Assembly: GCA_044347745.1 (NCBI GenBank)
Contig: JBIKUD010000003.1
Location: 17,942 to 81,941, forward strand
Direction: 5' to 3'
Origin: Bdellovibrionota bacterium
GTDB lineage: Bacteria; Bdellovibrionota_C; UBA2361; JAFLCA01
DNA length: 64,000 nt
The notes below the pieces were generated by a model that had not been told where the DNA came from, did no database searches, and was given only the letters and a program-made list of their open reading frames with translations. The translations under genes and the position numbers were made by a program. This document shows, in pieces, positions 28,977-59,333 of the stretch (positions within the stretch are counted from its first letter, which is position 1; each line of letters starts with the position of its first letter).

Positions 28977-31900
28977 TTAAAACTCTTCTCCCAAAGGATT
29001 AGAGCGCTCGAGTTTTGAGAAAATGCGATAGGCGCAGGGAACCACAAAAAGCGAGAACAAGGTTGATACCAGTACGCCGCCCAAAATGGTCACTGCCATG
29101 GGGATACGGCTTTCAGCCCCGGGTCCGAGTGCCAGGGCAGGGGGAATAGCGGCAGCAATAGTTGCAAAAGAAGTCATAAGAATAGGTCTTAGACGAATCG
29201 GCGCGGCAGTCAAAATAGCCTGATCGATGTCCAACTTTTCAACAAACCGTTTGTGATTAATAAATTCTACAATCAAGATAGAATTTTTCTTCACAATACC
29301 CATAAGCAAAATCATGCCGATTATGCTGAATAAATTAAGCGTTTGGTCGGCGAGGGCCAAGGCAAATACGGCCCCTGTAATACTGAAGGGCAGGGCCAAG
29401 AGCACGGTGACTGGATGAATAAAGCTATTAAATTGGGCTCCCAAAATCATGTAGGCCACAATTACACCGAGCCAAAAAACAAAAATGAGGCTCTGAAAAG
29501 ATTCTTTGAATGTTTGTGCGCCGCCGCCCAGAAAAATAGTGTAACCAGCTGGTAATAACTCTTTTCCCAATCGTTCGGCTGTTTGAATTGCTTCTCCCTG
29601 AGAGCTCCCTGGTGCTACGTTTGCAAACACCGAAATTGAGCGCTGGCGGTTGCGTCGGGTGATAGTTTGCAAAGTCTGCTTGGTGCTCACTTCAGCCACC
29701 TCGCGCAAAGGAACAATTTCGCCATGAATGTTTCTTACGTCTAATTTGAGTATGTCCTCTGGTCCGGCCTTTTGGCTTGGTTCAAGCGCAACGCGTACAT
29801 CGTACCGGCGCCCATCATTGGTGAACTTCCCTTGTCGTTGCCCGCCCATGGCTATGCTTATGGTGTCGCTAATAGTTTCAACAGGCACTCCTCGTGCAGC
29901 TGCTGAGTCGCGCTTGGGTACTATGGCAACCTCAGGTTGACCCAAGCGATAATCGGTGTCGATATCTACTACCGTTTTTGAATCTTCTAAGCGTTTAATC
30001 AGGGCATTTGTATGAGTTTCAAGTTCATTCCAATCTGAGCCACGTACATTAAATTCAACCGGAAAGCCTCGCTGGGCGGTAAATCCACGAGTTGAAAGGT
30101 CTTGGGGGAACGCTTTCAAATTCGGAATTTTTTGCATAGCGCTGCGAACTTCGTCCATAATTTCGGCTTGAGTTAAGGAACGTTCTTTCGGAGGAACGAG
30201 CGAGACAAATGCAATTCCCGTGTTGACTTCTCCTCCGCCGAACCCTCCAATGGCTGCGAATACACGTTTTACATCTTTTCGAGACTGAAGATATTTTTCA
30301 GCTTCCCGAACAATTTGACTAGTTGCCTCGAGGGAGCTGCCCACTGGGGTCTGAAGACGCATAATAAAAATGCTCTGGTCTTGGGCTGGAATAAATTCTT
30401 TCTTTAGTTTGCCCATAACGGGTAGAGAGAACCCGAAAATGACCAAGGCCACTATAACCACAGCCCATCTCAGACGTAGGCAAGCGCCAAGTAATCCGCC
30501 GTAGAGTTTTGCAAACCAGGCAAAGATGTCATCTAGTTTGCGGACGAGAGCCCCCTGAGAATGGGTTTCTTCCATAAACTGCGAGCAGCGCATAGGCGTC
30601 AGCGTTACCGCTTCAAGCAGGGAAAGGGCAACGGCAGTTGAAATAGTGACTCCGAATTGGAAGAAAAATTTGCCAATTACTCCTTCCATGAATGCGACGG
30701 GTAGGAAGATGGCAATAACGGCAATCGACGCTGCGATTGCGGCAAATGTAATTTCGTTTGTGCCGTCACGCGAAGCAATTACGCGAGACTTACCCATGGC
30801 ATGGTGACGATATATGTTTTCGAGCACCATAATGGCATCGTCAACCACGATACCAATTGCTAATGCCAAGCCAAGAATAGTAAAGAAGTTAAGGGTGAAC
30901 CCCATGAAGTAAATTACTGCGAACGTGCCCACAATCGAGGTGGGAATCGAGAGAAGCACATTGAAAGTTGGTCTGAGTGAGCCAAGGAAAAAGAAGCAAA
31001 CCACTGCAGTCGCTAAGGCCGAAAGCAAGAGTGTAAATTCGGTCTCTTCTACCGATTCACGAATAAAAACAGTACTGTCAAAATTAACCCCGATATTAAG
31101 ATCAGAAGGTAACGTTTTAGCTACCTCCTCCATTTTTGCTTTTACGGTATCGCCGACTTCAACCGCGTTTGAACCACGTTGTTTTTTTATTCCTAAACCA
31201 ATTGCTGGCAACCCATTAACTCTTGAAATCCGCCGAATGTCCGCGAGTCCGTCCTCCACTCGAGCAATGTCTTTGAGGCGTAAGGAGCTTTGGTAGATGG
31301 GGCGACCGCCACGAGAGGTAATAAGAATATTTCCAACCTCTTCTGGAGTGTAGCCCTCTCCGTAAATACGAACGTTTAATTCCTGCTGGTTATTTTCAAG
31401 TCGGCCAGCTGCTATTTCAAGATGCCCACGCAATAATGCATCGCGCACATCCAATAACGTGAGTTCATGAGTTTTTAGTTTTTGGTTGTCAACCCAAAGG
31501 CGAAGATTGCGTTCGGTAAATCCTCCAAGCATTACCTCTCCGACACCAGGGAGAATTTCAAATCGATCTTTAATATTTTGATCAACGTAGGTAATAAGTT
31601 CGTGGAGGCTCCGTTCTCCCGAAACACCAAGCCAAATAATAGGCTGGTCGTCGGGATTTGTTTTTCGAATTGTAGGCGGATCTACATCTAACGGTAGGCG
31701 CACTCGGGACACGGCCGATTGAACTTCTTGGAGGGCAGAGTCCACATCTCGGCCGAGTTCGAACTCAACCGTAATGGTTGCTTGGCCTTGACGAATGGTT
31801 GAGGCGATGTCGCGTATTCCTTCAACGGAAACCAGATTTTCTTCGAGTACGTCTACAATTTCTGATTCGATGACGCTAGGCGCAGCTCCATTCCAAGCGA

Positions 31901-32048
31901 CTTGGACCGAGAGTACCGGAAAGTCAACGTCCGGCATCTGGCTAATGCCAAGGCGTAGAAAACTGATGGCGCCAAAAAGTACCAGCGCTAATGTAAGCAT
32001 CCAGGCAAATACCGGGCGGCGAATACTTATCTCTGCTAGAGAACTCAT
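28977..32048 (-). CDS. RND efflux permease (HAE-1 / AcrB-like)
   Basis: 1023 aa. The N-terminus is ISIRRPVFAWMLTLALVLFG and the TM4 motif is LAIGIVVDDAIMVLEN, which is the multidrug type rather than the heavy-metal type. Its start overlaps the upstream TolC stop (ATGA at 32045-32048). Confidence 0.9.
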   Translation of the reverse strand: MSSLAEISIRRPVFAWMLTLALVLFGAISFLRLGISQMPDVDFPVLSVQVAWNGAAPSVIESEIVDVLEENLVSVEGIRDIASTIRQGQATITVEFELGRDVDSALQEVQSAVSRVRLPLDVDPPTIRKTNPDDQPIIWLGVSGERSLHELITYVDQNIKDRFEILPGVGEVMLGGFTERNLRLWVDNQKLKTHELTLLDVRDALLRGHLEIAAGRLENNQQELNVRIYGEGYTPEEVGNILITSRGGRPIYQSSLRLKDIARVEDGLADIRRISRVNGLPAIGLGIKKQRGSNAVEVGDTVKAKMEEVAKTLPSDLNIGVNFDSTVFIRESVEETEFTLLLSALATAVVCFFFLGSLRPTFNVLLSIPTSIVGTFAVIYFMGFTLNFFTILGLALAIGIVVDDAIMVLENIYRHHAMGKSRVIASRDGTNEITFAAIAASIAVIAIFLPVAFMEGVIGKFFFQFGVTISTAVALSLLEAVTLTPMRCSQFMEETHSQGALVRKLDDIFAWFAKLYGGLLGACLRLRWAVVIVALVIFGFSLPVMGKLKKEFIPAQDQSIFIMRLQTPVGSSLEATSQIVREAEKYLQSRKDVKRVFAAIGGFGGGEVNTGIAFVSLVPPKERSLTQAEIMDEVRSAMQKIPNLKAFPQDLSTRGFTAQRGFPVEFNVRGSDWNELETHTNALIKRLEDSKTVVDIDTDYRLGQPEVAIVPKRDSAAARGVPVETISDTISIAMGGQRQGKFTNDGRRYDVRVALEPSQKAGPEDILKLDVRNIHGEIVPLREVAEVSTKQTLQTITRRNRQRSISVFANVAPGSSQGEAIQTAERLGKELLPAGYTIFLGGGAQTFKESFQSLIFVFWLGVIVAYMILGAQFNSFIHPVTVLLALPFSITGAVFALALADQTLNLFSIIGMILLMGIVKKNSILIVEFINHKRFVEKLDIDQAILTAAPIRLRPILMTSFATIAAAIPPALALGPGAESRIPMAVTILGGVLVSTLFSLFVVPCAYRIFSKLERSNPLGEEF

Positions 32049-33403
32049 GATACTGCTCCGCTTGCCACTTTTAGTTCTGCGTGCGCAATAAAGAGATCGG
32101 CCTGTGCACCAGCATATTTTCGTTCTGCTTCGAGTTCTTGTTGGATGGCTGCAAGCACATCAAGATTAGTTACCAGTCCAAGTTCATAATCGCGGCGCTG
32201 TGCGCTCAGATTCTTTCGGGCTGCCACACGCTGCACATCAATTAACTCGAGTTCTTTGCGAGTTGATACCAGTTTCACGTGGGCAGTCTTAAGTTCCTTT
32301 ATAGCCTCGCGTTCTTGCAGTTTTAGTCGCACCTGCGATGCTCGTTCTTTAGCTCGATATTCAGCTATCGCAGCTTGGGTAGCGCCACCTTCAAACAGAG
32401 GCAGGTCAAATTTGAGCAGGACCTCCCAGTCTCTATTTGAGTCTGGTTCTTCGTACAGGTAACTATTTCCCTCCAAAAAGAGGGTGGGGAGGTGCCCACG
32501 TTCAGCTGCTTTACGCTCTAATGTCGCTGCATTAAGCTGCGCCTGTTTGGCTTTGATATCATAGCGGCTTGGGGCTTCCTCAACCTGAGGAGGCTGGGAG
32601 CTTGGGAGGTTGGATGGCACACCAAGTTCAAACTGTTCGTTTGTTATGGTTTTGCCCGTAAGGAAATTAAGCAGTTCTCGACTTGTTCCTAAAAGCCCTT
32701 GATTTTGCGCACGCGAAGCACTTACGGCAGCCTTATCGGCAAGAGCTGCTTCGATTTCGCCTTCTCTGGCTTTTCCAAGAGTTCGAAATTTTTCAAGCTC
32801 GGTGATGCGATCAGATAATACCTGCTCAGTGCGTTTAAGCAGCGCATCGTCGCGCTGGTAGAGCGCCGTCTGTGCATACACTCGAGCAACATCTGCATAC
32901 AAAAGCTCGCCTTGACGAACTTTGAGGTGTCTCTGGGCCTCTAAGCCCGATTCTCGCGCATCTGCCACCAAAGACTCTCTAAACCCGGTGAAGAGGGGCT
33001 GGCGAAGTGTCAGTGACCAATCTCTGGGCTTAGAGCGACGGCTTCCAGTGCTTGAGTTCGATCCTTGCGAAGAATCATCTGAAAAAGTTGAACCAGTCAA
33101 CCGTCCATAATTTTGGCTACTTCGAAATCGGTGCGTGCCGAGTATGTGGATTTCGGGATACAGGGCGGCAAGGGCTTGTTGATATTGAGCCTCGGCAGCA
33201 AGAATAAGTTCTTGAGATTCCTGTAATGCTTCACTTTGTGCCAGCGCAAGCTGATACGCCTCATCCATAGAGAGCTTTAATTTTTCAGTTGGAGCAGCAT
33301 GGGTTACGGAAACGCACGCGAGGAGTGCGCTAATTGTTAAAATGAATGAGAGCGGAAGGACGGCAAAGTTTTGGCATTTTTGATAAGGGACTAAGAACTT
33401 CAT
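32045..33403 (-). CDS. TolC-family outer membrane efflux protein
   Basis: The ATG at 33403 is preceded by GGAGA and gives the signal peptide LSFILTISALLACVSVTHA|AP. The protein is long and alpha-helical with repeat character (LSMDEAYQLALAQSEAL..., RRDYELGLVTNLDVL), typical of the OEP family. Confidence 0.8.
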   Translation of the reverse strand: MKFLVPYQKCQNFAVLPLSFILTISALLACVSVTHAAPTEKLKLSMDEAYQLALAQSEALQESQELILAAEAQYQQALAALYPEIHILGTHRFRSSQNYGRLTGSTFSDDSSQGSNSSTGSRRSKPRDWSLTLRQPLFTGFRESLVADARESGLEAQRHLKVRQGELLYADVARVYAQTALYQRDDALLKRTEQVLSDRITELEKFRTLGKAREGEIEAALADKAAVSASRAQNQGLLGTSRELLNFLTGKTITNEQFELGVPSNLPSSQPPQVEEAPSRYDIKAKQAQLNAATLERKAAERGHLPTLFLEGNSYLYEEPDSNRDWEVLLKFDLPLFEGGATQAAIAEYRAKERASQVRLKLQEREAIKELKTAHVKLVSTRKELELIDVQRVAARKNLSAQRRDYELGLVTNLDVLAAIQQELEAERKYAGAQADLFIAHAELKVASGAVS

Positions 33404-33455
33404 AACAAACTGTCTCCATGTGAGACGGGAATACAGAAATGGTTTGGCGTAGAAT

Positions 33456-33467
33456 GTTTGCGCAAAC
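33456..33467. promoter_or_regulatory. perfect 12-bp palindrome GTTTGCGCAAAC, candidate operator upstream of TolC-RND
   Basis: Lies 53 nt upstream of the TolC ATG, in the 186-bp gap between the regulator and the TolC gene. Confidence 0.3.
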
Positions 33468-33589
33468 CTGTTCAAAAAAACACCTGCAACATCAAATCAG
33501 CTGATACCCCCGTATACTAGAAAAATCCTCAGCATACGGCAAACATGCGTCTTTGCGTAAAAACACGTATGGCTACGTATTTCAGTGTA

Positions 33590-34501
33590 TTATGAGCTTT
33601 GCCGAGAGAGTAAAAGCTCCTCAAGTGAGAGCCCAAGTGCCGTAGCTAGCCGCGCGATTACGCCAATCGTTACATTTTGTTTTCCATGCTCCACTGTGCT
33701 TAGGTAGGTACGATCCAAACCTGCGCTCTCAGCCAGCGCGGACTGGTTGAGTTGCAGTTCTCTTCGTCTTGATGCAATTCGATTGCCGAGCTCCCTAAGG
33801 TACTGTTCCACCGAAACCTGGGATGTAGGCAGCTGCAAGAGCTTACGGGCACTTTGCTGGGCCTCTACGGCGTCAAATGCAACGGCGTCAGCTCCGCACT
33901 GCATTAAATCTTGCCCCACAAGAACTTCAATTGGACCACCAACAATAATTTTTGGAGCTTGCGGTACCGATTTGAGGAGCTTCAAGCACTCCTTAAGCGC
34001 AGGGATGTCTTGGGCCTGAAAAACCGAAAGGCCCACCAGCGCCGGCTTTACTTGAAGCACATGCCGAAGTAAGTCATTTGCGGGAGTACTGGCTCCCAAG
34101 AAATGTATGTCCCAGCCGTCAACATCTAAAAAATCGGCTACCACCCGGGCTCCTAAAATATGTTGGTTGCCCTCTACGCAGGAGATTACAGCCTTCAAGT
34201 GCAAGGGCGCGCGTTTTGGAACTCGGGCCCGCACCTTGACCATGAGTTCAAGGCAAATTTGGGTGGCCATATGCTCTTCCGCTACGGTGGCTTTTCCATT
34301 ACGCCACAACGCACCAATATCCCGCAGTCCAGGCATGAGAAGACCCAAATAAATTTGTTCCCATGCCAATTTTGCTGACCAGGCTTTGTCGATAACAGCA
34401 GAGGCAGCTGAAGAGTCGCCAGCTTGAAACGCAGCAATAAGGTTTTGCTGTAAAGATTTGAGCAACAATTTGGTTTTCTTTGCGTTGTTCATACCCAACA
34501 T
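33590..34501 (-). CDS. cobalamin-binding (CarH-like photoreceptor module) regulator with C-terminal XRE-type HTH
   Basis: 303 aa. The W66-x9-E76-H77 motif is ALWRNGKATVAEEHMAT. The B12 Rossmann domain has His114 (VEGNQHILGARVVADFLDVDGWDIHFLGASTP), then GLSV and IIVGGP. The C-terminal Cro/C1 HTH is LNQSALAESAGLDRTYLSTVEHGKQNVTIGVIARLATALGLSLEELL. Confidence 0.7.
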   Translation of the reverse strand: MLGMNNAKKTKLLLKSLQQNLIAAFQAGDSSAASAVIDKAWSAKLAWEQIYLGLLMPGLRDIGALWRNGKATVAEEHMATQICLELMVKVRARVPKRAPLHLKAVISCVEGNQHILGARVVADFLDVDGWDIHFLGASTPANDLLRHVLQVKPALVGLSVFQAQDIPALKECLKLLKSVPQAPKIIVGGPIEVLVGQDLMQCGADAVAFDAVEAQQSARKLLQLPTSQVSVEQYLRELGNRIASRRRELQLNQSALAESAGLDRTYLSTVEHGKQNVTIGVIARLATALGLSLEELLLSRQSS

Positions 34502-34503
34502 TA

Positions 34504-34517
34504 TACTATAAATAGTA
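34504..34517. promoter_or_regulatory. palindrome TACTAT-AA-ATAGTA in the regulator/SRPBCC divergent region
   Basis: Perfect 6-bp arms with a 2-nt spacer, immediately upstream of the regulator start codon. It could equally be an AT-rich -10 element. Confidence 0.2.
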
Positions 34518-34575
34518 GACTAAAGGCAACCTAGCCAAGTATGCTAAAGAGAGCAACAGCCAGTGGAGTGTGATT

Positions 34576-35052
34576 ATGCATTACCAACTTCAAGATGTGC
34601 TCGTGGTGCCGAAGCCTATAGAGGAAGTGTGGTCATTTTTCTCTGACCCACGAAATCTTCCGCTAATTACTCCGCCGGATTTGGGGTTTAAAATAATATC
34701 CGATCCCGGAAATGAAACTTTTCCAGGCTTAATTATACGCTACCAGGTTACTCCACTACTGGGTGTACCATTAGAGTGGGTGAGTGAAATTACCCATGTG
34801 GTGCCGGAGCAGCTCTTTGTTGATGAGCAGCGTTTTGGGCCTTACGCGTTTTGGCATCATTTGCACCGATTTAGAAGCGAGGGGAGCACGACGGTTGTTG
34901 AAGATGTGGTGAACTATCGTCTGCCTATGGGAGTGCTTGGCCGTATTGTGCATCCTTTTATTGTGCGCCCCAAATTGGAGCGCATTTTTAGGTATAGGCG
35001 TAGCGTTGTGGAACAACTTATGGGGACTGCAACTACGCAGCTAATGAGCTAA
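34576..35052 (+). CDS. SRPBCC-family ligand-binding protein (COG4276-like)
   Basis: VWSFFSDPRNLPLITPPDLGFKI ... EWVSEITHV ... FVDEQRFGPYAFWHHLHRF ... VNYRLPMGVLG ... IFRYRR follows the SRPBCC pattern. Its 3' end overlaps the convergent RND gene by 20 nt. Confidence 0.7.
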   Translation: MHYQLQDVLVVPKPIEEVWSFFSDPRNLPLITPPDLGFKIISDPGNETFPGLIIRYQVTPLLGVPLEWVSEITHVVPEQLFVDEQRFGPYAFWHHLHRFRSEGSTTVVEDVVNYRLPMGVLGRIVHPFIVRPKLERIFRYRRSVVEQLMGTATTQLMS

Positions 35053-38000
35053 CGTCATCGCGTTCTTTTTTGTGATCCTTTGCAATCACCAAATACAAAG
35101 CAGGTACAAAAAAGAGTGTAAAAAGAGTGCCAATGAACATTCCGCTCACCAGCACAATTCCGATGCTGTTTCGTGCGCCAGAGCCCGCGCCGCTTGCAAG
35201 AATAAGCGGAAAGTGGCCAACAACTGTTGCCACCGAAGTCATCAGAACTGGACGAAGACGCGTGCTTGCTGACCCAAGGGCGGCTTCGCGTTTAGATTTT
35301 CCTTCCTCTTGAAGCTTGTTGGCAAATTCAACAATAAGAATTCCATTTTTTGCGACCAAGCCCACCAGAGTCACCAGTCCAACTTGGGAATAAATATTAA
35401 GCGAGGTGGCGCCTAAACATACAAATATAAGGGAACCAGCAAGAGCCAGAGGCACAGAGCCAAGCAATACGATTATGGGATCTCTAAAGCTTTCAAATTG
35501 CGCAGCGAGAACAAGAAATATGAGAATTGTTGCCAGAATAAGGGTTTCAGTTAGTGCGTTTCCTTCTTTACGTAACTGCCGCGATTCGCCGGCATAATCA
35601 ATGGTAAATCCCGGCGGCAAGATGGTTTTCGCTGCCTCTTCAAGGGCCTTAAGTCCTTGGTCAATGCTGACACCTGGTGGAATCGCCCCTTGAATTTTTG
35701 CCGAGTTAAGCTGTTGGAAGCGATTAAGCTGACGGGGCTGAGTGGCCACTTCAACCGAGGCTACGGCTGAGACAGGAATAAGCATTCCTGAGGGGCTCGT
35801 GAGGTAGCTATTCAAAACTTGCTCGGGATTTAATCGGGCTTGCCGTTTTGCCTGAGGGATAACTTTGTAGCTGCGCCCTTGAATGTTAAATCGATTAACG
35901 TAATCGCCACCGGTTAGCACTGCAATGTCTCTTGCCACGTCTTCAAGCGACAAACCTAGGGCCGCAACTTTGTCTCGATCTATAAGTATGCGTCCTTGGG
36001 GTAGGTCATACTTTAAGTCGGTGTCGGCATACATGAACATGCCGCTTTGAAAAGCTGCTCCCACAAGCTTTCCAGCAGCCTCAAGCATTTGCTCTGGTTC
36101 CGCTGTAGAGGAAATTACCATTTCAACCGGGAAATCGCTGCCGCCAGGGAGTGGTGGCGGAGAGGTGACGATGAGTCGTACTCCAGGAATAACGCTCATA
36201 CGGCCCCAAAGTTCGCCTTCAATCTCCGCTACTCCGCGAGCACGTTCGCTCCAGGGTTTTAAGATCATGCCAGAGAAACCGCCCGTAGCTTGGGTAAGCT
36301 GAAAGGTGTTGGCGTGTTCAGGAAAACTTCTAAAAATTTCCTCCGCTTGTTCGGTGTAGGGCACTGTTTGCTCTAACGTTGCATTTGGGGCCCCCTGCAC
36401 AATACCAAACACCACGCCTTGGTCTTCGCGAGGCGCAAGTTCTTTAGTCGAAAACATGTAGAGGAGAGGAATGGAGAGAATGAGTAAGGCCGTGGCAGCT
36501 AACACCATGGCTTTTAAATCGAGGATAGATCCTAAAGCACTTATATAGCGGCGACGGAGGTTTTCAAAAACCGCATCGACTCGCAGTTTCATTCGACTCG
36601 GCTTTTCGTGAGCGCGAAGTAGCCGCGAGCTCATCATAGGGGACAGCGTTAAAGCGACAAACCCTGAAATGATAACGGCACCAGCCAGCGTAAATGCGAA
36701 TTCTCGAAAGAGAGCCCCAGTAAGCCCACCTTGAATGCCAATTGGCGCATACACGGCAGCCAATGTAATCGTCATGGCGATAGTTGGGGCCACAAGTTCT
36801 CGTCCAGCAGTCAGGGCTGCTTGTACTGGAGCGAGACCTTCTTGAATATGACGCTCGACGTTCTCAAGCATCACAATCGCGTCATCAACCACCAGACCAA
36901 CCGCTAACACAATTGCCAGCAAGGTAAGAAGATTGAGCGTAAATCCAAGGCTAAGCATCAGAGCTGCAGCGCCAATTAAGGACAACGGAATGGCGACCAC
37001 AGGCACCAAAACGCCCCTAAATGATCCAATAAAAAGATAAATTACCAAAATGACGATTAGAATTGTTTCAAGAAGTGTTTTGCTTACTTCAGAGAGCGCA
37101 TCTCGAATGTACGCAGTTGCGTCATAGGGTACTCCCACTTGCATGCCCTTTGGTGCTGCTTTCTCAATGGCAGGAAGAAGGTCTCGTACCTTCTCGATTA
37201 CTTCGAGCGAATTCGCGTTCGGCAGAACCCAGACGCCCATGAACGTAGCGGCTTTGCCACCAAATCGAACATCTTCTTCGTAAGATTCTGCGCCAAGTAC
37301 CACTTCAGCTACGTCCCGAAGCCGCACCAGAGTGCTGCCGTTTTGCTTTACGACTAAATTTTCAAACTCTTCCCGGGTACGTAAATCGGTGTTGGTGGTA
37401 AGGTTCATGCTTACTAAGGATCCTTTGGTTGCTCCAACAGCAGCCAGCACATTGTTGGCTGCAAGAGCACGGCTCACATCTGAGGGGCTTAACCCCAAGC
37501 CTGCAAGAGCATCTGGTTTAAGCCAGATACGCATGGCAAAAGTTCTTGCCCCGAGAATGTCTGCTTTTTGTACTCCCGCAACGGCTGAGAGCTGTGGTTG
37601 CACCACACGAGTGAGGTAGTCAGTAATTTGACTTTGATCGAGATTGTCAGAATAGAAACTTAAATATACTGAGGCAAAGCGGCTGTCGGCATTTTCAACG
37701 GTAATAATTGGAGATTCTGCTTCCGGCGGAAGTTCGCTTCTTACTTGGGCCACCTTTGCTTGAATCTGAGTGAGGGCGTCGTTGGTGTTGTAATTTAAGC
37801 GTAAGTGGGCGGTGATGGTGCTGGCACCCTGAGCGCTAGATGACTCGAGGTAATCTATGCCATCGGCACTGGCAATCACTCGCTCTAACGGAGTGGTTAC
37901 GAAACCACGCACAAGGTCGGCGTTTGCGCCAACGTAGACTGTTTTGACAGTCACTACTGCCACGTCACTTCTTGGATATTGCTGAACGCTAATGCTCTGA

Positions 38001-38086
38001 ATAGCTTTAATGCCAGCTACGAGAATAAGAATATTGACGCACAGGGCCAATACAGGGCGTTTAATAAAAAGGTCAGTGAAGCTCAC
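35033..38086 (-). CDS. RND efflux permease (HAE-1, MdtB/C- or AcrB-like)
   Basis: 1017 aa. The N-terminus is FIKRPVLALCVNILILVAG and the TM4 motif is LAVGLVVDDAIVMLEN. It is the last gene of an OMF-MFP-RND operon. Confidence 0.9.
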   Translation of the reverse strand: MSFTDLFIKRPVLALCVNILILVAGIKAIQSISVQQYPRSDVAVVTVKTVYVGANADLVRGFVTTPLERVIASADGIDYLESSSAQGASTITAHLRLNYNTNDALTQIQAKVAQVRSELPPEAESPIITVENADSRFASVYLSFYSDNLDQSQITDYLTRVVQPQLSAVAGVQKADILGARTFAMRIWLKPDALAGLGLSPSDVSRALAANNVLAAVGATKGSLVSMNLTTNTDLRTREEFENLVVKQNGSTLVRLRDVAEVVLGAESYEEDVRFGGKAATFMGVWVLPNANSLEVIEKVRDLLPAIEKAAPKGMQVGVPYDATAYIRDALSEVSKTLLETILIVILVIYLFIGSFRGVLVPVVAIPLSLIGAAALMLSLGFTLNLLTLLAIVLAVGLVVDDAIVMLENVERHIQEGLAPVQAALTAGRELVAPTIAMTITLAAVYAPIGIQGGLTGALFREFAFTLAGAVIISGFVALTLSPMMSSRLLRAHEKPSRMKLRVDAVFENLRRRYISALGSILDLKAMVLAATALLILSIPLLYMFSTKELAPREDQGVVFGIVQGAPNATLEQTVPYTEQAEEIFRSFPEHANTFQLTQATGGFSGMILKPWSERARGVAEIEGELWGRMSVIPGVRLIVTSPPPLPGGSDFPVEMVISSTAEPEQMLEAAGKLVGAAFQSGMFMYADTDLKYDLPQGRILIDRDKVAALGLSLEDVARDIAVLTGGDYVNRFNIQGRSYKVIPQAKRQARLNPEQVLNSYLTSPSGMLIPVSAVASVEVATQPRQLNRFQQLNSAKIQGAIPPGVSIDQGLKALEEAAKTILPPGFTIDYAGESRQLRKEGNALTETLILATILIFLVLAAQFESFRDPIIVLLGSVPLALAGSLIFVCLGATSLNIYSQVGLVTLVGLVAKNGILIVEFANKLQEEGKSKREAALGSASTRLRPVLMTSVATVVGHFPLILASGAGSGARNSIGIVLVSGMFIGTLFTLFFVPALYLVIAKDHKKERDDVSSLAA

Positions 38087-38118
38087 GGTGCTATCCCTTT
38101 TTTAGAAGCATTTTCAGA

Positions 38119-39270
38119 TTACGTATCAGCAGGCGTTGGTGCATCACTCACGACTGGGCTACGACTATTATCAACAACCACCTTGGCGCCGGGTCTCAAT
38201 TTAAATGCGCCAGCGGTTACTACCTCCTGATTTTCTGTGAGACCAGAAAGTACCATTACTTTGTCTCCACGGCGTTGACCGAGTCTCACTATCGTTTGAG
38301 ATATATCTCGTGGACCCTGTGCATCGGTAGATTGAACAACCCAGACGCTGTCGCCATAAGGCGCGTGCATTATGGCAGTCTGCGGAATGATAAGTGCATC
38401 TTGCGGTGCACCAATATCAATTTCTATATGGGTAAACATTCCGGGGCGTAATTCTCCGCTTTGGTTGGCGAGTGTTGCTCTCACGGCAACGGTGCGAGTT
38501 GCATTTTCAATCTGAGGATCTATGCCGGTAACCAAGCCTTCAAAAACCCGATCTGGAAATGCGTCCACGGTAACAGTAACTTTAAGTCCAAGACTCAACT
38601 GACTTAACGCGTTTTGCGGTAATGCAAAATCAGCATAGACGGGGTCGAGTGCATACAGCGGCACAAGCGGGGTTCCTGGAGAAACATATTGGCCAAGACT
38701 TACTTGACGAATGCCTAGTTTGCCGCCAAATGGAGCAAGAATCCTCTTTTTAGCAATAGTTGCGCGTAATGCCTTTTCTTCTGCCTCGGCGCGAGCAAGG
38801 GCCTCTTGGGCCGATTCAAATGATTCTTGAGAAACTGCAAGATCTTTACGCAAACGTTCGGCGCGCTCAAATGCGGTGCGTGCGCGTTTGGTGCTTGCGA
38901 TAGCGCCAACAAGCTGCGCGTCTTCAACGCTTGCATCTATTTCGAGCAAGAAATCACCCGCCTTCACGTCAGCGCCAGATTCAAAATTGATTTTAGTTAT
39001 TTTGCCCGCTACCTCGGCACTGAGCGTCGCTCCCTGAGAAGCCGTGATGCTGCCAACTGCATGCGACCTATTTTGCCAAGAGACTTTACTGACGATACTC
39101 GTGCTGACGGCCTCGGGTGGCATCACCATTGAAGAGTGCTGCGCCATGGCTGCCGAAATTTGGAAGCCTTTGACGACTGCCACGAACGCGATAACTAAGG
39201 TCACGGCTCCTGCCCCCACAAAAATTTGAAGGTTTCGGCTTTGTCGAATAATTTCAATTCTAGCTTTCAT
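38119..39270 (-). CDS. RND periplasmic adaptor (membrane fusion protein)
   Basis: The ATG at 39270 overlaps the OMF stop (ATGA). It has an N-terminal anchor, lipoyl/hairpin motifs (GDFLLEIDASVEDAQL ... ILAPFGGKLG) and a beta-barrel region. The longest ORF (39345) would overlap the OMF gene. Confidence 0.85.
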   Translation of the reverse strand: MKARIEIIRQSRNLQIFVGAGAVTLVIAFVAVVKGFQISAAMAQHSSMVMPPEAVSTSIVSKVSWQNRSHAVGSITASQGATLSAEVAGKITKINFESGADVKAGDFLLEIDASVEDAQLVGAIASTKRARTAFERAERLRKDLAVSQESFESAQEALARAEAEEKALRATIAKKRILAPFGGKLGIRQVSLGQYVSPGTPLVPLYALDPVYADFALPQNALSQLSLGLKVTVTVDAFPDRVFEGLVTGIDPQIENATRTVAVRATLANQSGELRPGMFTHIEIDIGAPQDALIIPQTAIMHAPYGDSVWVVQSTDAQGPRDISQTIVRLGQRRGDKVMVLSGLTENQEVVTAGAFKLRPGAKVVVDNSRSPVVSDAPTPADT

Positions 39271-40772
39271 ACATTTTCCTGCGCTTGAGATGTTTGTTCG
39301 GTTTGAGGGGTTGGTAGTTGCCAGCCGCCACCAAGGGCTTTGCAAAGCGTAATAAATTGCTGGGCAATTTCACCGCGAACCGCAACCGCTTGTTCCTCTG
39401 CAGAGAAGAGAGCTCGGTCAACTTCTAACTTATCAATAAAGTCGATAAGGCCCTCATGGTATTGCTGAGAAGCGAGCTGCGCGGCACGGCGATTAGCTGC
39501 AAGCAGGGTCTCAATATGCTGACGTTTGCGAATTAAATTTCGGTAGCTTGTAAGTGCCCCCTCAACTTCAGCTACTGCACTTAAGACAGCATTTTGATAG
39601 GCAGCAAGTTTTTGCCGCATGCGGGCATCGGCGGCATCAACTTTGGCCATTAAATTATGCCAAGAAAGAATTGGCCAACTAAACCCTGGTGCGATTGCAA
39701 ATACTTCACTCGGATCATTAAAGAGAGTTCCTTGGGTGGCAGATCGAAATCCAAGTTCTCCAGTGAGGCTAAACTTAGGAAAAAGTGTTCCAATTGCTAC
39801 TCCAACCCGAGCAGTGTCGGCGGCTAACGCGTGCTCAGCGACTAACAGATCTGGACGGCGCCGAAGCAATTCAGACGGTAACCCAAGTTCTGGAAGCGAA
39901 TCTGGCTGGGGGAGATCTTGAAGAATAGAGAGCTCAGATTTAAGCGACTCAGTTGATTGGCCAAGAAGAACTTCCAATTGCTGCCTACTTACGTGCTCAG
40001 CAGATTCGAGCGCCGGAATTCCGGCTTCAACCTCAGAGGCTAGAGACTTTGCCCGTAACACATCTAGTTCAGAGCTTAGTCCGGCGGAAAAGCGTTTTTC
40101 AGTTAGTGCGAGCGAGGCAGTGGCAGCTTCCAAGTTTCCACGAGCTGCCACCAGACGATGTTGGGCGGTACGTAGCGCGATATATTGGGCAGCAACTTGA
40201 CTGAGTATTGAGAGCTGAGCTCCTTGTTCGGCGGCCAATGCCGAACCAAGTTCGGCTCGTGCTGCCTCAGCATCGCGGCGAATACGCCCAAAAAGATCTA
40301 TTTCCCAACTTAATTGAGCACCTACCGAATAGCGGCTCTCGATTATTCCCCCTGGAAAAAGAGCCAAGGTGTTGCTCTCTTTCGATCTTCGGTATTCAGC
40401 CCCAAGACCGATTTCAGGATTTAAATTGGAAAGGGCCACCTGCCGCAGTGCCGCCACTTCTTCAACTTTGGCTTGGGCCTCTTTTAAGGAGAAGTTTTGG
40501 GCTCGAGCAACCTCTAGAAAGTGAAGCAGCATTGGATCTGCAAAGCGAGTAAGCCACTTCGTTTCAGGAGTTACGGGCTCAGAATTGGCTGAAATTGGTG
40601 TTTCAGGCTTGGCTTCTGCCTGAGACCAGCCCTCAGTAACAAAAGGCAACTCAGGAGCTTTAAAGTCTGGACCAATCGCGCAGGCACTAAGAGCCAAGAG
40701 GCTTACGGGCAACAGGAATCGCCTATGGGTGGAGCCAAAGAGAAACCAAAATGGTGACAATTTGAGATGCAT
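39267..40772 (-). CDS. efflux outer membrane factor lipoprotein (NodT family)
   Basis: 501 aa. The lipobox LLALSAC|AIGPDFKAPE is the classic NodT-family N-terminus, and the protein shows TolC-like helical repeats. Confidence 0.85.
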   Translation of the reverse strand: MHLKLSPFWFLFGSTHRRFLLPVSLLALSACAIGPDFKAPELPFVTEGWSQAEAKPETPISANSEPVTPETKWLTRFADPMLLHFLEVARAQNFSLKEAQAKVEEVAALRQVALSNLNPEIGLGAEYRRSKESNTLALFPGGIIESRYSVGAQLSWEIDLFGRIRRDAEAARAELGSALAAEQGAQLSILSQVAAQYIALRTAQHRLVAARGNLEAATASLALTEKRFSAGLSSELDVLRAKSLASEVEAGIPALESAEHVSRQQLEVLLGQSTESLKSELSILQDLPQPDSLPELGLPSELLRRRPDLLVAEHALAADTARVGVAIGTLFPKFSLTGELGFRSATQGTLFNDPSEVFAIAPGFSWPILSWHNLMAKVDAADARMRQKLAAYQNAVLSAVAEVEGALTSYRNLIRKRQHIETLLAANRRAAQLASQQYHEGLIDFIDKLEVDRALFSAEEQAVAVRGEIAQQFITLCKALGGGWQLPTPQTEQTSQAQENV

Positions 40773-41931: not shown

Positions 41932-42034
41932 AGAATTGATTCTTTTTTGAGAAAACTGTTTTGTGCAGCGCAAAGGCTTCGATGTGCACAAACACCGCAA
42001 GCCTAAAGCGGACAATTAAATAAAGTGAGGAAGT

Positions 42035-42367
42035 TTAAATAGTCGGGACGGTGTGAACCGGTGGGTCTCTTGCATTTTGGCGGAAGAGAGAAGCCTTTTT
42101 CTTGGCTTGTTGGATTAAAACAAAAGATGCCGGCTCAGTTTTGTGAAGCGCCGGATTCTCAATAGACAAGACTGGTTCAAATGAGAGTAAACTGCCTAAA
42201 GTTCTTAGTTCAGCAAATGGACAGGGTGCCGACTGGCTTGTCTTTTTTTTGTCGTGACAATGGCAATGTTCGTTCGGAATTCGGGCAAGCGGTGTTGCAG
42301 ATGAAAGCACCAGGACAAAAACGCTGAGTATAATTGAACCCCAAAGTGGGGCTCGCCGAATTTCCAT
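42035..42367 (-). CDS. small hypothetical exported/anchored protein with HCHCH motif
   Basis: 110 aa. It has an N-terminal hydrophobic helix (LWGSIILSVFVLVLSSA) followed by NEHCHCHD ... APCPF. It lies directly upstream of the His-rich OMP on the same strand. Confidence 0.35.
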   Translation of the reverse strand: MEIRRAPLWGSIILSVFVLVLSSATPLARIPNEHCHCHDKKKTSQSAPCPFAELRTLGSLLSFEPVLSIENPALHKTEPASFVLIQQAKKKASLFRQNARDPPVHTVPTI

Positions 42368-42393
42368 GCAACACAGACTTTAGTTGGTTTGGT

Positions 42394-43800
42394 ATGAAAA
42401 AGTACAGTAGGGGATTATTCGTATTTCGCCGCGACTTGAGGCTTATTGACAATACAGCCCTTAGCGCAGCACTACAAAGTTGTAAGCAGGTCTATGTGGC
42501 CTTTGTGCTTGATGCGCGGCAGCTTAAGCCTCATGCCTACCGCTCGCATAATGGACTACGCTTTATGTGCGAAAGCCTTCATGAACTGGCGGAAGAGCTT
42601 CGTGCCCGCGGTAGTCAACTTTTCTGGCTAGAGGGACAGGCCGAGCGAGAGATTCCGGCATTTATGAATGCCCACCAGATTGAGGCGCTTTTTGTAAATA
42701 AAGACTACACGCCTTTTAGTCGAGAGCGAGACAAAAAAATCAGTCAGGCGGTAGAAGCGCTGGGTAAAGTTTTTCATTCTTTTTCAGATTTACTTTTGGT
42801 TGAACCTAGTCAATTTGCCAAACCCGATGGCAAGCCATACACCGTTTTTACTCCCTTTTATAAACGAGCGTTGACGCAAGAAGTGCGTACACTTTCTCCA
42901 AATCCGTTTGACGGATTAGAAAGAGGTGAAGGTTTGGTGCCAGGTAACATGCAGGACAGCGCTTTTAATTTAGAAAGCCTGTTGCCACAAAACTTAGCAG
43001 CCAACCCAAGGCAGCGTGGTGGCCGCGCTGCCGCCCTTAAATTAATTGCCGAGCTTTCTACTAAATCAAACTATAAAGAAGAACGTGATATTCCGAGTAT
43101 TAAAGGCACTACTACCTTATCGGCGCATCATAAATTTGGCACCTGTTCAATTCGAGAAGTGTATTGGGCAGCTCGCGAATTGTATGGGGCGGATTCAACT
43201 TTGGTGCGAGAGCTTTATTGGAGAGATTTTTTTACGCATATTGCCTGGCATTTTCCCAAAGTGTTTAGCGGTGCTTTTCAGCAGCAGTATGACGCGATTC
43301 AGTGGTCAGAAAACGAATCTGCATTTAAGCGCTTCTGTGAGGGGGAAACTGGTTTCCCTATTGTTGACGCCGGAATTAGAGAATTGTTAACGACCGGTTA
43401 TATGCATAACCGTGTGCGTATGATCGTGGCATCATTTTTAACAAAAGACCTGCATATATCGTGGCGCTGGGGCGAGCAATTTTTTGCAAAACATCTCATT
43501 GATTTTGATCCATCAGTGAACAACGGAAGCTGGCAGTGGGCTGCTTCCACCGGCTGCGACGCCCAGCCATATTTTCGCATTTTTAACCCGTGGCTTCAGC
43601 AAGAGCGCTTTGATCCAGATTGTGTCTATATAAAGCGCTACGTCCCCGAACTCAAAACTCTAAGCCCTAAGCAAATTCACCAGCTCGGAGAAGAGGGGGC
43701 CAGCAGGCCAGCGGGATACCCTGCTGCAATTTGTGAGCATAGTTTTGAAAAAGATAGAGCACTTGAAATGTTTGAAGCGATTGCAAAAAAGCAAATGTAA
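42394..43800 (+). CDS. phrB: deoxyribodipyrimidine photolyase (class I CPD type)
   Basis: The N-terminal FVFRRDLRLIDNTAL and the FAD-binding region TGFPIVDAGIRELLTTGYMHNRVRMIVASFLTKDL ... WQWAASTGCDAQPYFRIFNP are diagnostic. The ATG at 42394 was chosen, while the longest ORF (42334) overlaps the divergent small gene. Confidence 0.9.
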   Translation: MKKYSRGLFVFRRDLRLIDNTALSAALQSCKQVYVAFVLDARQLKPHAYRSHNGLRFMCESLHELAEELRARGSQLFWLEGQAEREIPAFMNAHQIEALFVNKDYTPFSRERDKKISQAVEALGKVFHSFSDLLLVEPSQFAKPDGKPYTVFTPFYKRALTQEVRTLSPNPFDGLERGEGLVPGNMQDSAFNLESLLPQNLAANPRQRGGRAAALKLIAELSTKSNYKEERDIPSIKGTTTLSAHHKFGTCSIREVYWAARELYGADSTLVRELYWRDFFTHIAWHFPKVFSGAFQQQYDAIQWSENESAFKRFCEGETGFPIVDAGIRELLTTGYMHNRVRMIVASFLTKDLHISWRWGEQFFAKHLIDFDPSVNNGSWQWAASTGCDAQPYFRIFNPWLQQERFDPDCVYIKRYVPELKTLSPKQIHQLGEEGASRPAGYPAAICEHSFEKDRALEMFEAIAKKQM

Positions 43801-50685: not shown

Positions 50686-52977
50686 GTGAGTCGTTCGATA
50701 TTTGGTTCCTTTTCCCTCCTTGGTTTTTTCACTTCCACGCTTCTCTCTTCTTCCTTGGCCTTCGCACAAATTTCAGATTCGCTGGTGATCAAAGAAGTTC
50801 AGGTTAGTGGTAATCGACGCATAGATGGCGCCGCTATTCGCAGTCAATTAAAAGCACTTTCCGGAAAGGTATCCAGTGACGCTATAGATGAAGATGTAAA
50901 AACTCTGTATCGCACCGGTTTTTTTGACCAAGTTACCGTTTCTGCCAATGCCGGCGTGTTGATCTACACCGTTATTGAGAAGCCTCAAGTTCGTAAAGTG
51001 TTCATAAAGGGCAATAAAGAAGTAAAAGAAAGTGAGCTTCGAGATGTCTTAAAGCTTGGAGCCGACCGGTTTATCGATAAAACCAAAATCGACTCGCTGG
51101 TGCGCCAAGTGACGCGGTATTATCAGACCCAAGGATTTTACGACGCCGAAGTGTCGGCATCGATTGTGCCTGCGGGCGATGGGCAGGTGGATCTCACCGT
51201 GCAGGTCTCTGAAGGGGACGCCTATAAAATTAAACGCATTAACGTGCTGGGCCTTAAAGAAATTGACGAGTCTGACCTACTCAGCGCAATTCAGACCAAG
51301 CGTTATAAGTGGTGGAATTCGTGGCTCCTGGGTACTGGCCGTCTCAGCCCTGAAATGCTTGAGAATGATCGGGCACTCATGCGTCAATATTTTCTTGATA
51401 ACGGATTTATTGATGCCGCCGTGAGCGAAGCTCGCATTGAAAAAGATGATAATCGCATTCAGGTATATTTCGAGGTGCAGGAAGGGCCACGGTATACCAT
51501 CTCTTCGGTGTCTGCGTCAGGAGATTTGATTGAGGATTCAATCGAAAAGACGCTTGAAGGTATAGAATCGGAACCAGGCGTCGTATTCAGTGCCTCAAAA
51601 ATTAGAGAAGACTCTTTTAAGGTGAGTGAGAAATTTACTGATAAAGGCTACGCATTTGCCAACGTTGTGCCCAATACTGCTATTTCACGCACGGACTCTA
51701 CCGTGGCGCTTGAGTTTGCAAGCACTAAAGGAAATCCGGTCATTGTAAACGAGATTCATATCCAGGGTAACCAAAAAACCTATGAAAACGTAGTGCGCCG
51801 CGAAATTAAGGTGCAAGAGCAGGAGCTATACTCCAGTTCAAAAGTGAAACGCAGCCAACAGTTACTTGAGCGCCTCGGCTTTTTTGAAGAGGTTAATATT
51901 ACCTCTGAGCCTACTGCCGAGAAAGATAAAGTGGATCTAAATGTAAGCCTTAGGGAGGGTTCAACAGGAACCTTCTCGGCGGGAGCTGGATTTTCAAGCT
52001 CTGATGGAGCCTTGTTTAATGCAAGACTTACCGAGAATAATATTTTTGGGTCGGGGCGCAGCTTGTCTTTGAACGCCGATATTGGCACGAGGCGCGATAA
52101 CCTTATTCTTTCGCTAAACGATAATCGTCTCAACGATACCTATGTATCGGGTGGTATTGACCTCCTCAAGAGTGACCGAGAGTATAGTGATTTTGACAGA
52201 AGTTTGACGGGCGGAGCTCTTGAATTCGGCTATCCTTTAGAGCAGGTCTTCGGAGAAGTAGCGGAAGATATTTCTGCCTCACTACAGTATCAGTTTTATA
52301 ACATTGAAATTTCAGATGTTGATGAAGCTGACGCAGCTCAATTGGTTATTGATTCCGCTGGAACGTCAACCTCGTCGTCGATTAGTCCAAAGATCATACG
52401 TAATACTATCAACAATCCTATGAATCCCTCACGAGGGTCGAGGCAGGTCTTGTCCGCCGAGTATGCAGGAATTGGTGGAGATCAGGAATTTTACAATTTT
52501 GAGTTTAGAAATCAGTGGTATCAGCCACTACTAAAAACAGGAATTGGAGACTTTGTTTTTTCATGGCGATTAGCGCTTGGGTATGGTGAAAGTCTTAATG
52601 ACGATCCGTTCCCTCTATTTAAGCGCTATTTCCCTGGTGGAATAAATTCCGTTCGCGGTTTTAAAAATAGGACGCTTGGGCCTAAAGATTCCCGCGGAAA
52701 TGAGTTTGGTGGTGCCAAAGAGGTGGTAAATAATATCGAGCTTATCTTTCCGCTTATAAATTCGGCTGGTCTGAAAGGTGTCGTGTTTTACGACATTGGT
52801 GAGGCGTTTGACGACTCCGACAGTATCGACCTGGGAGCGTTACGCAAGGCCTATGGGTATGGTATCCGCTGGGCATCCCCGCTTGGGCCGATTCGTGTTG
52901 AATTTGGCTTTCCGATTGGGAAAGAGGACGGTGAGAGATCTATGGTCACCTTGTTCTCATTTGGCGCACCAATGTAA
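50686..52977 (+). CDS. bamA: outer membrane protein assembly factor BamA
   Basis: 763 aa with a GTG start 5 nt after AAGGAG. It has a signal peptide, repeated POTRA-like units (VIKEVQVSGNRRI...; IKRINVLGLKEI...; VNEIHIQGNQKT) and a C-terminal barrel ending FSFGAPM. Confidence 0.9.
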   Translation: MSRSIFGSFSLLGFFTSTLLSSSLAFAQISDSLVIKEVQVSGNRRIDGAAIRSQLKALSGKVSSDAIDEDVKTLYRTGFFDQVTVSANAGVLIYTVIEKPQVRKVFIKGNKEVKESELRDVLKLGADRFIDKTKIDSLVRQVTRYYQTQGFYDAEVSASIVPAGDGQVDLTVQVSEGDAYKIKRINVLGLKEIDESDLLSAIQTKRYKWWNSWLLGTGRLSPEMLENDRALMRQYFLDNGFIDAAVSEARIEKDDNRIQVYFEVQEGPRYTISSVSASGDLIEDSIEKTLEGIESEPGVVFSASKIREDSFKVSEKFTDKGYAFANVVPNTAISRTDSTVALEFASTKGNPVIVNEIHIQGNQKTYENVVRREIKVQEQELYSSSKVKRSQQLLERLGFFEEVNITSEPTAEKDKVDLNVSLREGSTGTFSAGAGFSSSDGALFNARLTENNIFGSGRSLSLNADIGTRRDNLILSLNDNRLNDTYVSGGIDLLKSDREYSDFDRSLTGGALEFGYPLEQVFGEVAEDISASLQYQFYNIEISDVDEADAAQLVIDSAGTSTSSSISPKIIRNTINNPMNPSRGSRQVLSAEYAGIGGDQEFYNFEFRNQWYQPLLKTGIGDFVFSWRLALGYGESLNDDPFPLFKRYFPGGINSVRGFKNRTLGPKDSRGNEFGGAKEVVNNIELIFPLINSAGLKGVVFYDIGEAFDDSDSIDLGALRKAYGYGIRWASPLGPIRVEFGFPIGKEDGERSMVTLFSFGAPM

Positions 52978-53061
52978 TTTGATATTTGGGGGGCTATCCC
53001 GTATAGTCCTCGCTTGACTTTTAACCAGTCATTTTGTCTGCCTTCTGAAGGCTTTAAAAGG

Positions 53062-53628: not shown

Positions 53629-53633
53629 GCGAT

Positions 53634-54110: not shown

Positions 54111-54140
54111 AGGTGCTTTGAGAGTGATGAGGTACCCGCA

Positions 54141-54938: not shown

Positions 54939-54970
54939 ACAACCTAATACATGCTCGTTTTGGGCTCGCT

Positions 54971-59299: not shown

Positions 59300-59333
59300 A
59301 CTGTGCTTCGTAAATGAGGAGTTCCATAAGTCC

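Follow-up and report, generated by a model that had tools for sequence, protein, structure and literature searches.

Domain organization of the regulator

The subject of this analysis is a gene in a 64,000-nucleotide stretch of DNA from a Bdellovibrionota bacterium (contig JBIKUD010000003.1, positions 17,942 to 81,941; hereafter the window). The open reading frame (ORF) lies on the minus strand at 33590..34501 and is translated in the ORF listing into a protein of 303 amino acids (aa), in which a cobalamin (B12)-binding module of the type known from CarH photoreceptors is followed by a C-terminal helix-turn-helix (HTH) domain of the XRE class. An SRPBCC gene is located divergently on one side of it, and genes for RND efflux follow on the other. 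The N-terminal part of the window protein is formed by a four-helix-bundle cap, B12-binding_2 (PF02607; residues 18–84, 34250..34450 on the minus strand), with a Pfam E-value of 1.6e-13 (51 bits against a cutoff of 23). Within this cap is the sequence W66-x9-E76-H77 (WRNGKATVAEEH, 34271-34306, minus strand). The cap is followed by a Rossmann-type B12-binding domain (PF02310; residues 103–211, 33869..34195, minus strand; E-value 9.9e-16, 58 bits against a cutoff of 32), which carries the candidate lower-axial His114 (codon 34160-34162, minus strand) in the context VEGNQHILG, with Asn two residues before the His (position H-2), together with S159 in GLSV and the G188–G189 pair in IIVGGP. The complete Rossmann motif reads N-x-H-x2-G-x41-S-x-F-x26-GG. 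The C-terminus consists of a Cro/C1 (XRE) HTH (residues 237–296, 33614..33793, minus strand), matched by HTH_3 (40.4 bits against a cutoff of 23) and HTH_31 (42.1 against 27) at E-values of about 1e-10. This is the only DNA-binding domain of the window protein, as no Pfam match to a MerR DNA-binding domain was obtained.

The three Pfam domains thus score above their gathering thresholds in exactly the order that the original prediction, made from the sequence without database searches, had anticipated (B12-binding_2, B12-binding, HTH_3), and the Trp-Glu-His signature, the candidate axial His with its Asn neighbour, the GLSV and IIVGGP motifs and the C-terminal XRE domain were all found at the residues given there. 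One element did not survive. A linker of roughly 40 aa had been proposed between the B12 module and the HTH, but in the AlphaFold2 (AF2) model the last Rossmann helix extends to residue 221, a short loop covers residues 222–230 and the first XRE helix begins at residue 231. The XRE domain of the model comprises five helices (residues 231–297).

The real start of the protein is probably Met4 (ATG 34492), which would give a coding sequence of 300 aa at 33590-34492 on the minus strand. This start is favoured because the nearest relatives begin with MNNN or MHNN at the equivalent Met, because a 300-aa member is present in the same cluster at 90% identity, and because a TATAAT box is located 7 nt 5′ of this ATG. 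The first ATG of the ORF coincides with the end of that TATAAT −10 box and also falls within the predicted operator motif described below.

Structural comparison with cobalamin-dependent proteins

The AF2 model of the window protein (pLDDT 93.3, pTM 0.77) was superimposed on solved CarH-type cobalamin-binding domains (8jbs, 5c8d and 8c31), a comparison that the original prediction had called for. The template modelling (TM) scores, normalised to the target, were 0.84–0.87, with a root-mean-square deviation (rmsd) of 2.4–2.6 Å. The best sequence matches among solved structures, at about 1e-16, are the photocobilins 8j2x and 8j2w and the MerR-type protein 8jbs, and CarH of Thermus thermophilus (TtCarH) follows at 3e-9. 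In the alignments to 8j2x and 8jbs, the Wx9EH of the window protein coincides at every column with their WxxxxxxxxxEH. For the C-terminal residues 236–296, the best solved match is the controller protein C.AhdI (1y7y, 7.5e-7), and 434 repressor and SinR were also retrieved. Among NCBIfam models the best is CarH, with an E-value of 8.3e-18. Its score of 64.6 bits is far below the equivalog cutoff of 400 bits because the MerR part is missing, and the alignment covers only model positions 81–249.

MetH, MtmC (3ezx), MttC (7xcn) and AerR (7te2, TM-score 0.77) have the same fold, so it is the motif rather than the fold that discriminates between these proteins. The shared fold with MtmC, MttC and MetH, the label 'methanogenic corrinoid protein MtbC1' attached to the protein at JGI, and matches to the NCBIfam MtbC and pyl_corrinoid models (2e-13 and 2e-12) could be taken to indicate a methyl-corrinoid carrier of the MtbC/MtmC/MetH-cap type that was fused by chance to an HTH. 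The scores, however, are far under the respective cutoffs (50.3 bits against 350 for MtbC and 46.9 against 215 for pyl_corrinoid), and Wx9EH is reported to be absent from MetH-type caps (PMC8156234). In addition, no methyltransferase partners were present among the recurrent neighbours of the family genes, and the host organisms are neither methanogens nor methylotrophic acetogens. We therefore regard a methyl-corrinoid carrier as highly improbable.

The closest characterised systems are CarH and class I LitR of Thermus thermophilus, Myxococcus xanthus and Bacillus megaterium, which share with the window protein a Wx9EH four-helix cap over a Rossmann domain with a lower-axial His. The spacing between the Trp and the EH pair is identical, and that between EH and the axial His is 37 residues in the window protein and 35 in CarH. 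The TtCarH residues used for this comparison in the original prediction (W131, H142 and H177) agree with the published numbering (W131, E141, hence H142, and H177; PMC10442372). Both proteins are one-component DNA-binding regulators encoded beside photoprotection genes, and both are probably autoregulated. They differ in the DNA-binding domain, which in CarH is an N-terminal MerR winged helix with an RxWERRY recognition helix and in the window protein a C-terminal XRE domain. The operators differ as well: CarH binds 11-bp direct repeats as a tetramer (PMC8156234), whereas a pair of 20-bp palindromes 31–32 bp apart is predicted here. Finally, at H-2 and at the position of H132 of TtCarH, the residues of the window protein are Asn and Arg, respectively. 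It is therefore outside the CarH family as defined, since it has the Wx9EH and lacks the N-terminal MerR DNA-binding domain and the direct-repeat operator. That it would nevertheless work like CarH is likely.

The MerR-family cobalamin-binding domain of Chloracidobacterium thermophilum (8jbs/8jbt) is among the three best solved sequence matches (8.6e-17) and superimposes on the AF2 model with a TM-score of 0.84 (normalised to the target) and an rmsd of 2.5 Å. WR-x8-EEH is common to both proteins, so the solved domain likewise has Arg after the Trp. It differs in belonging to a MerR-type protein with an N-terminal DNA-binding domain and in its H-2 residue, which is Asp rather than the Asn of the window protein. 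The photocobilins (8j2w, 8j2x and 8j2y; Zhang et al. 2024, PMC10979010) are the best solved sequence matches (4e-17). They contain Wx9EH, and experiments have shown these B12 modules, whose outputs are not of the MerR kind, to respond to light (PMC10979010). Unlike the window protein, they are fused to a photoglobin/biliverdin domain and to enzyme outputs. A globin is absent from the window protein, which is accounted for by the B12 module, a short linker (residues 222–236) and the HTH (237–296), the last of which occupies its C-terminal 70 residues. In agreement with this, the alignments to 8j2x and 8j2w end at the B12 module, and the full-length rmsd is about 20 Å.

AerR/PpaA proteins also contain the B12-binding fold and have no DNA-binding domain, whereas the window protein and all full-length relatives carry an HTH. 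AerR and PpaA have a light-linked regulatory role; their target is a partner repressor and their ligand photolysed hydroxocobalamin. AerR-type antirepressors are also among the characterised B12 photoreceptors. C proteins such as C.AhdI, 434 repressor and SinR, which best match the XRE domain, are small stand-alone HTH proteins without a sensor. Adjacent palindromic operators of C proteins and phage repressors overlap the regulator's own promoter. The operator predicted here has a similar layout, with palindromes over its own promoter, and differs in that oligomerization is predicted to come from the cofactor-loaded B12 module.

Conservation of the cofactor site

Conservation was counted over 168 distinct family members, in the numbering of the window protein. 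W66 is kept in 166 of them and E76 and H77 in all 168. In the Rossmann domain, H114 is kept in 167 members, Asp or Glu occupies position H-2 (112) in 154, S159 is present in 161, Thr or Ser is found at position 161 in 151, and the Gly pair is nearly invariant (G188 in 166, G189 in 168). The recognition helix is conserved to a similar degree (R264, Y266, S268, E271, G273 and N276 in 167–168 members, Q275 in 165). The published motifs that define CarH are Wx9EH and D/ExHx2G/Px41SxT/Vx22-27GG (PMC9304148; PMC8156234), and the residue counts show that the family consensus fits both. Cobalamin binding by the family is very probable. In the window protein itself, the spacing, His, Gly, Ser and GG of the Rossmann motif fit, with Asn replacing Asp/Glu and Phe replacing Thr/Val.

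CarA of M. xanthus has the classic B12 motif and yet works without B12 (PMC8156234; PMC9304148), and the window protein has three minority substitutions near its cofactor site. It could accordingly be a cofactor-independent repressor of the CarA kind, in which the B12 module would serve merely as a dimerization scaffold and control would come from another factor, for example an antirepressor. However, CarA has lost the Trp of Wx9EH (PMC9304148), whereas W66, E76, H77 and H114 are intact both in the window protein and in its closest relatives (P0002 and P0003), and no CarS-like gene is evident among the neighbours. A CarA-like repressor is thus a distinctly unlikely explanation.

The substitutions may matter in another way. 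In TtCarH, H132, the His that follows the Trp, is reported to be critical for tetramer disassembly and for stabilization of the light state, in which it is the upper ligand (PMC10442372). The closest relative, P0002, has Asn at H-2, like the window protein, and Cys after the Trp. Given the role of H132 and the minority residues in these two proteins, the sub-lineage to which the window protein belongs may behave differently from TtCarH after photolysis.

Extent and hosts of the family

Homologues of the window regulator were found at 96%, 54% and 35–46% identity. A word-indexed search returned about 95 clusters (90% identity) whose members share the three Pfam domains and are about 300 aa long. 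An exhaustive profile search listed at least 150 representatives at 50% identity, nearly all of which cover the full profile (280–330 aa), with a few fragments. The E-value is still 1e-65 at the 150th listed representative, so the family exceeds those listed. In a scan of species-representative genomes (600 pattern matches, of which at least 486 were confirmed by tblastn), at least 80 full-length loci were obtained. All 80 loci listed are metagenome-assembled genomes (MAGs), and their hosts include Bdellovibrionota, Dehalococcoidia/SAR202, Rokubacteria, Fimbriimonadales, Fraserbacteria, Bipolaricaulia and others. No relative with the full architecture from a cultured organism was present among the sequence-search matches listed, the species-representative loci or plasmids, where tblastn gave only matches to the B12 domain alone.

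The DNA-binding domain is XRE and C-terminal in every relative; this bears out the reversed order and different DNA-binding class noted in the original prediction and supports its suggestion of a fusion to a new output domain that took place separately from the MerR-CarH lineage. The novelty that it had raised as a possibility stands in part. The architecture is not a one-off, as it belongs to a large recurrent family that databases label generically ('MtbC1/XRE regulator', 'cobalamin-dependent protein'), but a full-text search found no paper that describes XRE coupled to CarH-type B12 sensing, although a prior mention is possible. In the literature found, experimental characterisation of B12 photoreceptors covers the photocobilins and CarH/LitR of the MerR type. 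Genome surveys cited or reported in the papers on photocobilins and photoglobins show B12 modules fused to many outputs, and those named in the survey passages of the photoglobin paper include MerR, ANTAR and HTH_17, not XRE. PhrR of Halomonas sp. HL-48 is described in a citing paper as a B12-binding, light-sensing transcription factor.

Besides the regulators themselves, no second B12 or HTH paralogue was seen in the window or the 80 loci. Two paralogous family regulators (L015 and L029) are located about 11 kb apart on contig VGLJ01000045.1 of a Rokubacteria MAG. Judging from the relatives of its BamA, the window derives from an uncultured, Oligoflexia/Bdellovibrionota-like bacterium. Between the window and the P0002/P0273 contig, the regulators are 54% identical and the BamA proteins 80%, which indicates that the regulator evolves comparatively fast.

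Predicted promoter and operator

A sigma-70-like promoter for the regulator is located at 34500..34529 on the minus strand (TTGCCT, an 18-nt spacer and TATAAT) and agrees with the consensus at 10 of 12 positions. No other promoter-like match was obtained in 33380-34650. The function of this promoter is presumed from its sequence. With the ATG of Met4 only 7 nt past the −10 box, the regulator transcript would appear to be leaderless.

To find operator candidates, the inverted dyads within the 290 bp surrounding the start of each regulator were enumerated without bias. Of the 81 upstream regions, 15 contain TGTT-N10-AACA, with 0.4 expected from control segments. The predicted operator to which these sites resolve, ATGTTG-N8-CAACAT, is an inverted repeat of 20 bp whose centre is AT-rich. 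Matches to the resulting matrix of at least 12 bits were found in 33 of 80 upstream segments and in 11 of 1530 control segments, and the positive ones are spread over 12 of the 34 clusters at 60% identity. Where sites are paired, the spacing is mostly 31–33 bp (19 of 23 pairs), corresponding to three helical turns. The near-invariant recognition helix fits such a shared half-site.

The window was scored with a matrix built from other genomes only. The top 20-mer of the entire window (15.9 bits) is a palindrome at 34482..34501 (minus-strand reading ATGTTGGGTATGAACAACGC), which takes in the final two bases of the −10 box, the predicted transcription start and the Met4 codon. Another site, distal and degenerate, is located 31 bp from it at 34513..34532 (minus-strand reading AGGTTGCCTTTAGTCTACTA) and overlaps the −35 hexamer. 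At L081, where the regulator is 54% identical, the layout of TATAAT, 7 nt and ATG is the same, with ATGTCG-N8-CAACAA over the start and TTGTTG...CGACTA at the −31 position. The third-best match in the window (12.3 bits) is at 42107-42126, in the divergent intergenic region next to a photolyase gene, and is only suggestive.

Other candidates were considered and set aside. Between the two sites, and overlapping the −10 region, is a perfect 14-bp palindrome, TACTATAAATAGTA (34504-34517). It has a single occurrence in the window, where a search allowing up to two mismatches expects about one chance match, and was dropped as the main operator since it does not recur at other loci. For the direct repeat AGTAGACTAAAG/AGTATGCTAAAG there is no comparative support. 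A reading of the motif as a LexA/SOS box was likewise rejected, because the LexA half-sites and spacing differ and the sites found here track the regulator gene across phyla.

Genomic neighbourhood

The ORFs of 81 loci were clustered and the recurrent clusters annotated. A photolyase is encoded near the regulator in six loci (L002, L031, L040, L042, L060 and L075), in addition to the window and the P0002 contig. A flavin amine oxidase is a neighbour in four (L001, L003, L010 and L037), in three of which DUF1295 and CFA synthase genes are also present. In about 10 loci, one SRPBCC subfamily, either alone or fused to SDR-DUF1731, is encoded no more than 4 kb from the regulator, and YbgA/DUF1722 and NmrA-DUF2867 proteins are neighbours in four loci each. 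RND pumps are encoded near the regulator in about 15 loci. In 13 Dehalococcoidia loci, an RND permease gene is located 96–419 bp downstream on the same strand, and in about nine loci of this group CobT (DBI_PRT) and CobS genes directly follow the regulator. In this respect the family differs from CarH, since no carotenoid genes were found among the annotated recurrent clusters. The photolyase, the combination of CFA synthase, amine oxidase and DUF1295, and the SRPBCC neighbours independently point to a light response. PhrR is said to control photolyase, cfa and folate genes, a set that overlaps with the neighbours found here, and to be of the MerR/LitR type, not XRE.

The CobT and CobS genes could also indicate a sensor of cobalamin availability, in which AdoCbl (adenosylcobalamin) or another corrinoid would act as a co-repressor in feedback on corrinoid remodelling or salvage and on other genes, with light lability being incidental. 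The absence from the window protein of the His that stabilises the light state of TtCarH is in line with such a role, and because CarH itself needs B12 the two signals are inseparable from sequence. On the other hand, the near-invariant Wx9EH marks AdoCbl photoreceptors off from other B12 binders (PMC8156234; PMC9304148), bound AdoCbl is intrinsically photolabile, and the photolyase, the CFA synthase with amine oxidase and DUF1295, YbgA and SRPBCC-SDR are light-response rather than B12 genes. Sensing of cobalamin alone is therefore an unlikely reading, though less so than the other alternatives discussed above.

In the window, the SRPBCC (polyketide-cyclase-like) gene is on the plus strand at 34570..35052 (Pfam Polyketide_cyc, 3.3e-8), divergent from the regulator, with a probable start at ATG 34576 preceded by GGAG. 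Its product is 40% identical to that of the L075 gene and 33% identical to the SRPBCC-SDR fusion of L029. The gene is syntenic in the P0002 contig and is a candidate member of the regulon. The regulator is directly followed on the minus strand by an outer-membrane factor (OMF) gene (32045-33475, Pfam OEP; probable start 33403), and this in turn by an RND permease gene (28977-32048, minus strand, Pfam ACR_tran) whose product falls with generic multidrug RND permeases, under the NCBIfam subfamily cutoffs. No convincing terminator was found between the regulator, OMF and RND genes, and from this arrangement they may be co-transcribed. The minus-strand order is OMF, membrane-fusion protein (MFP) and RND (35033-40772), then, past the plus-strand SRPBCC gene, the regulator, OMF and RND (28977-33475). 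This order is repeated on the contig of P0002, the regulator with 54% identity, where it extends from SprT and photolyase to the second RND. The two RND sets that flank the regulator are unequal: the downstream set (28977-33475) is without an MFP gene and the upstream set (35033-40772) is complete, with OMF, MFP and RND, an asymmetry that is repeated in the syntenic P0002 contig.

The DNA photolyase gene (42394..43800, plus strand; Pfam DNA_photolyase and FAD_binding_7, NCBIfam photolyase models) lies 7.9 kb upstream of the regulator and starts at ATG 42394, not at TTG 42334. It is a candidate regulon member, assigned with low confidence. The region between it and a MetA-pathway porin-like gene (42016-42393) contains an ORF of 110 aa (42035-42367, minus strand), which is probably spurious because it fills the divergent intergenic region and has no Pfam match.

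Several further neighbours were recorded. DICT-domain proteins of about 388 aa are encoded near the regulator in seven loci (L005, L022, L031, L060, L066, L076 and L078). Twelve Bdellovibrionota loci (within L008-L030) contain, always next to the regulator and divergent from it, a gene whose 344-aa product has a DnaJ domain at its N-terminus; in most of the same loci a DUF1698-type methyltransferase is located downstream, and ApaG and a Mur ligase are present in about half. Elsewhere in the window, an outer-membrane biogenesis cluster (bamA, skp, fabZ, lpxA, lpxI; 50686-55822) and the Wza- and Wzc-type genes for capsule export that follow it (58157-61667) look ordinary.

Proposed mechanism

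Taken together, the motif, the predicted operator and the neighbouring genes make it fairly likely that the window protein is a one-component, AdoCbl-dependent photoreceptor repressor that is relieved by light. In the dark, binding of AdoCbl would drive oligomerization, by analogy with CarH probably into a dimer of dimers, an arrangement that is also suggested by the paired, in-phase palindromes. The oligomer would set two HTH pairs on two palindromes three helical turns apart and, when bound, would occlude the promoter and so repress the regulator itself and the divergent SRPBCC gene. The downstream OMF-RND genes and the photolyase are probable further targets. Light would then cleave the Co–C bond, the oligomer would fall apart or lose its cooperativity, and the target genes would be derepressed.

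Several observations weigh against the light-relieved repressor. Cobalamin binding, photolysis and DNA binding by the window protein are predictions, and its light response is something we infer. Its residues at three positions of the cofactor site are in the minority: N112 stands where the family has Asp or Glu (Asn in 12 of 168 members), R67 follows the Trp (Arg in 30 members, His in 114) and F161 replaces Thr or Ser (3 members). RND pumps and CobT/CobS are not classical light-response genes. Neither cobalamin supply genes nor a riboswitch are visible in the 64-kb window, where an Rfam scan (1-64000) returned no family at its gathering score and hence no cobalamin riboswitch. As for the operator, a clear site is present in only about 40% of the family loci, and the distal site of the window is very weak (0.3 bits), though in the top 0.19% of window positions. 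The second-best matrix match (at 54240) has a comparable score and is judged to be a chance occurrence because it is inside lpxA. TGTTG-N8-CAACA with up to two mismatches is not enriched window-wide (39 occurrences against 31 expected), so only position-specific evidence is meaningful.

Implications

For the family as a whole, we consider the chances about evenly balanced that it forms a second class of B12-dependent photoreceptor transcription factors, one that was assembled independently. Such proteins would consist of a CarH-type AdoCbl module and a C-terminal XRE HTH, would be widespread in uncultured Bdellovibrionota, SAR202/Dehalococcoidia and other phyla, and would act as light-dissociable dimers of dimers on paired palindromes. 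Their light-controlled regulon would include photolyase and lipid-modifying genes and, contrary to expectation, also RND efflux and corrinoid-remodelling genes, and the sub-lineage of the window protein may use a light-state chemistry unlike that of TtCarH. The prediction is directly testable on a defined 51-bp operator region (34482-34532), and a compact green-light-responsive repressor with a palindromic operator would be an optogenetic tool. Were there no response to light, the proteins would still be a new family of B12-linked regulators. If the class is real, the AdoCbl light switch has been joined to DNA binding more than once, with another domain order and operator geometry, and light or B12 would be tied to RND efflux and corrinoid remodelling. 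It would also provide a first handle on the light responses of abundant uncultured lake and ocean bacteria such as Bdellovibrionota and SAR202.

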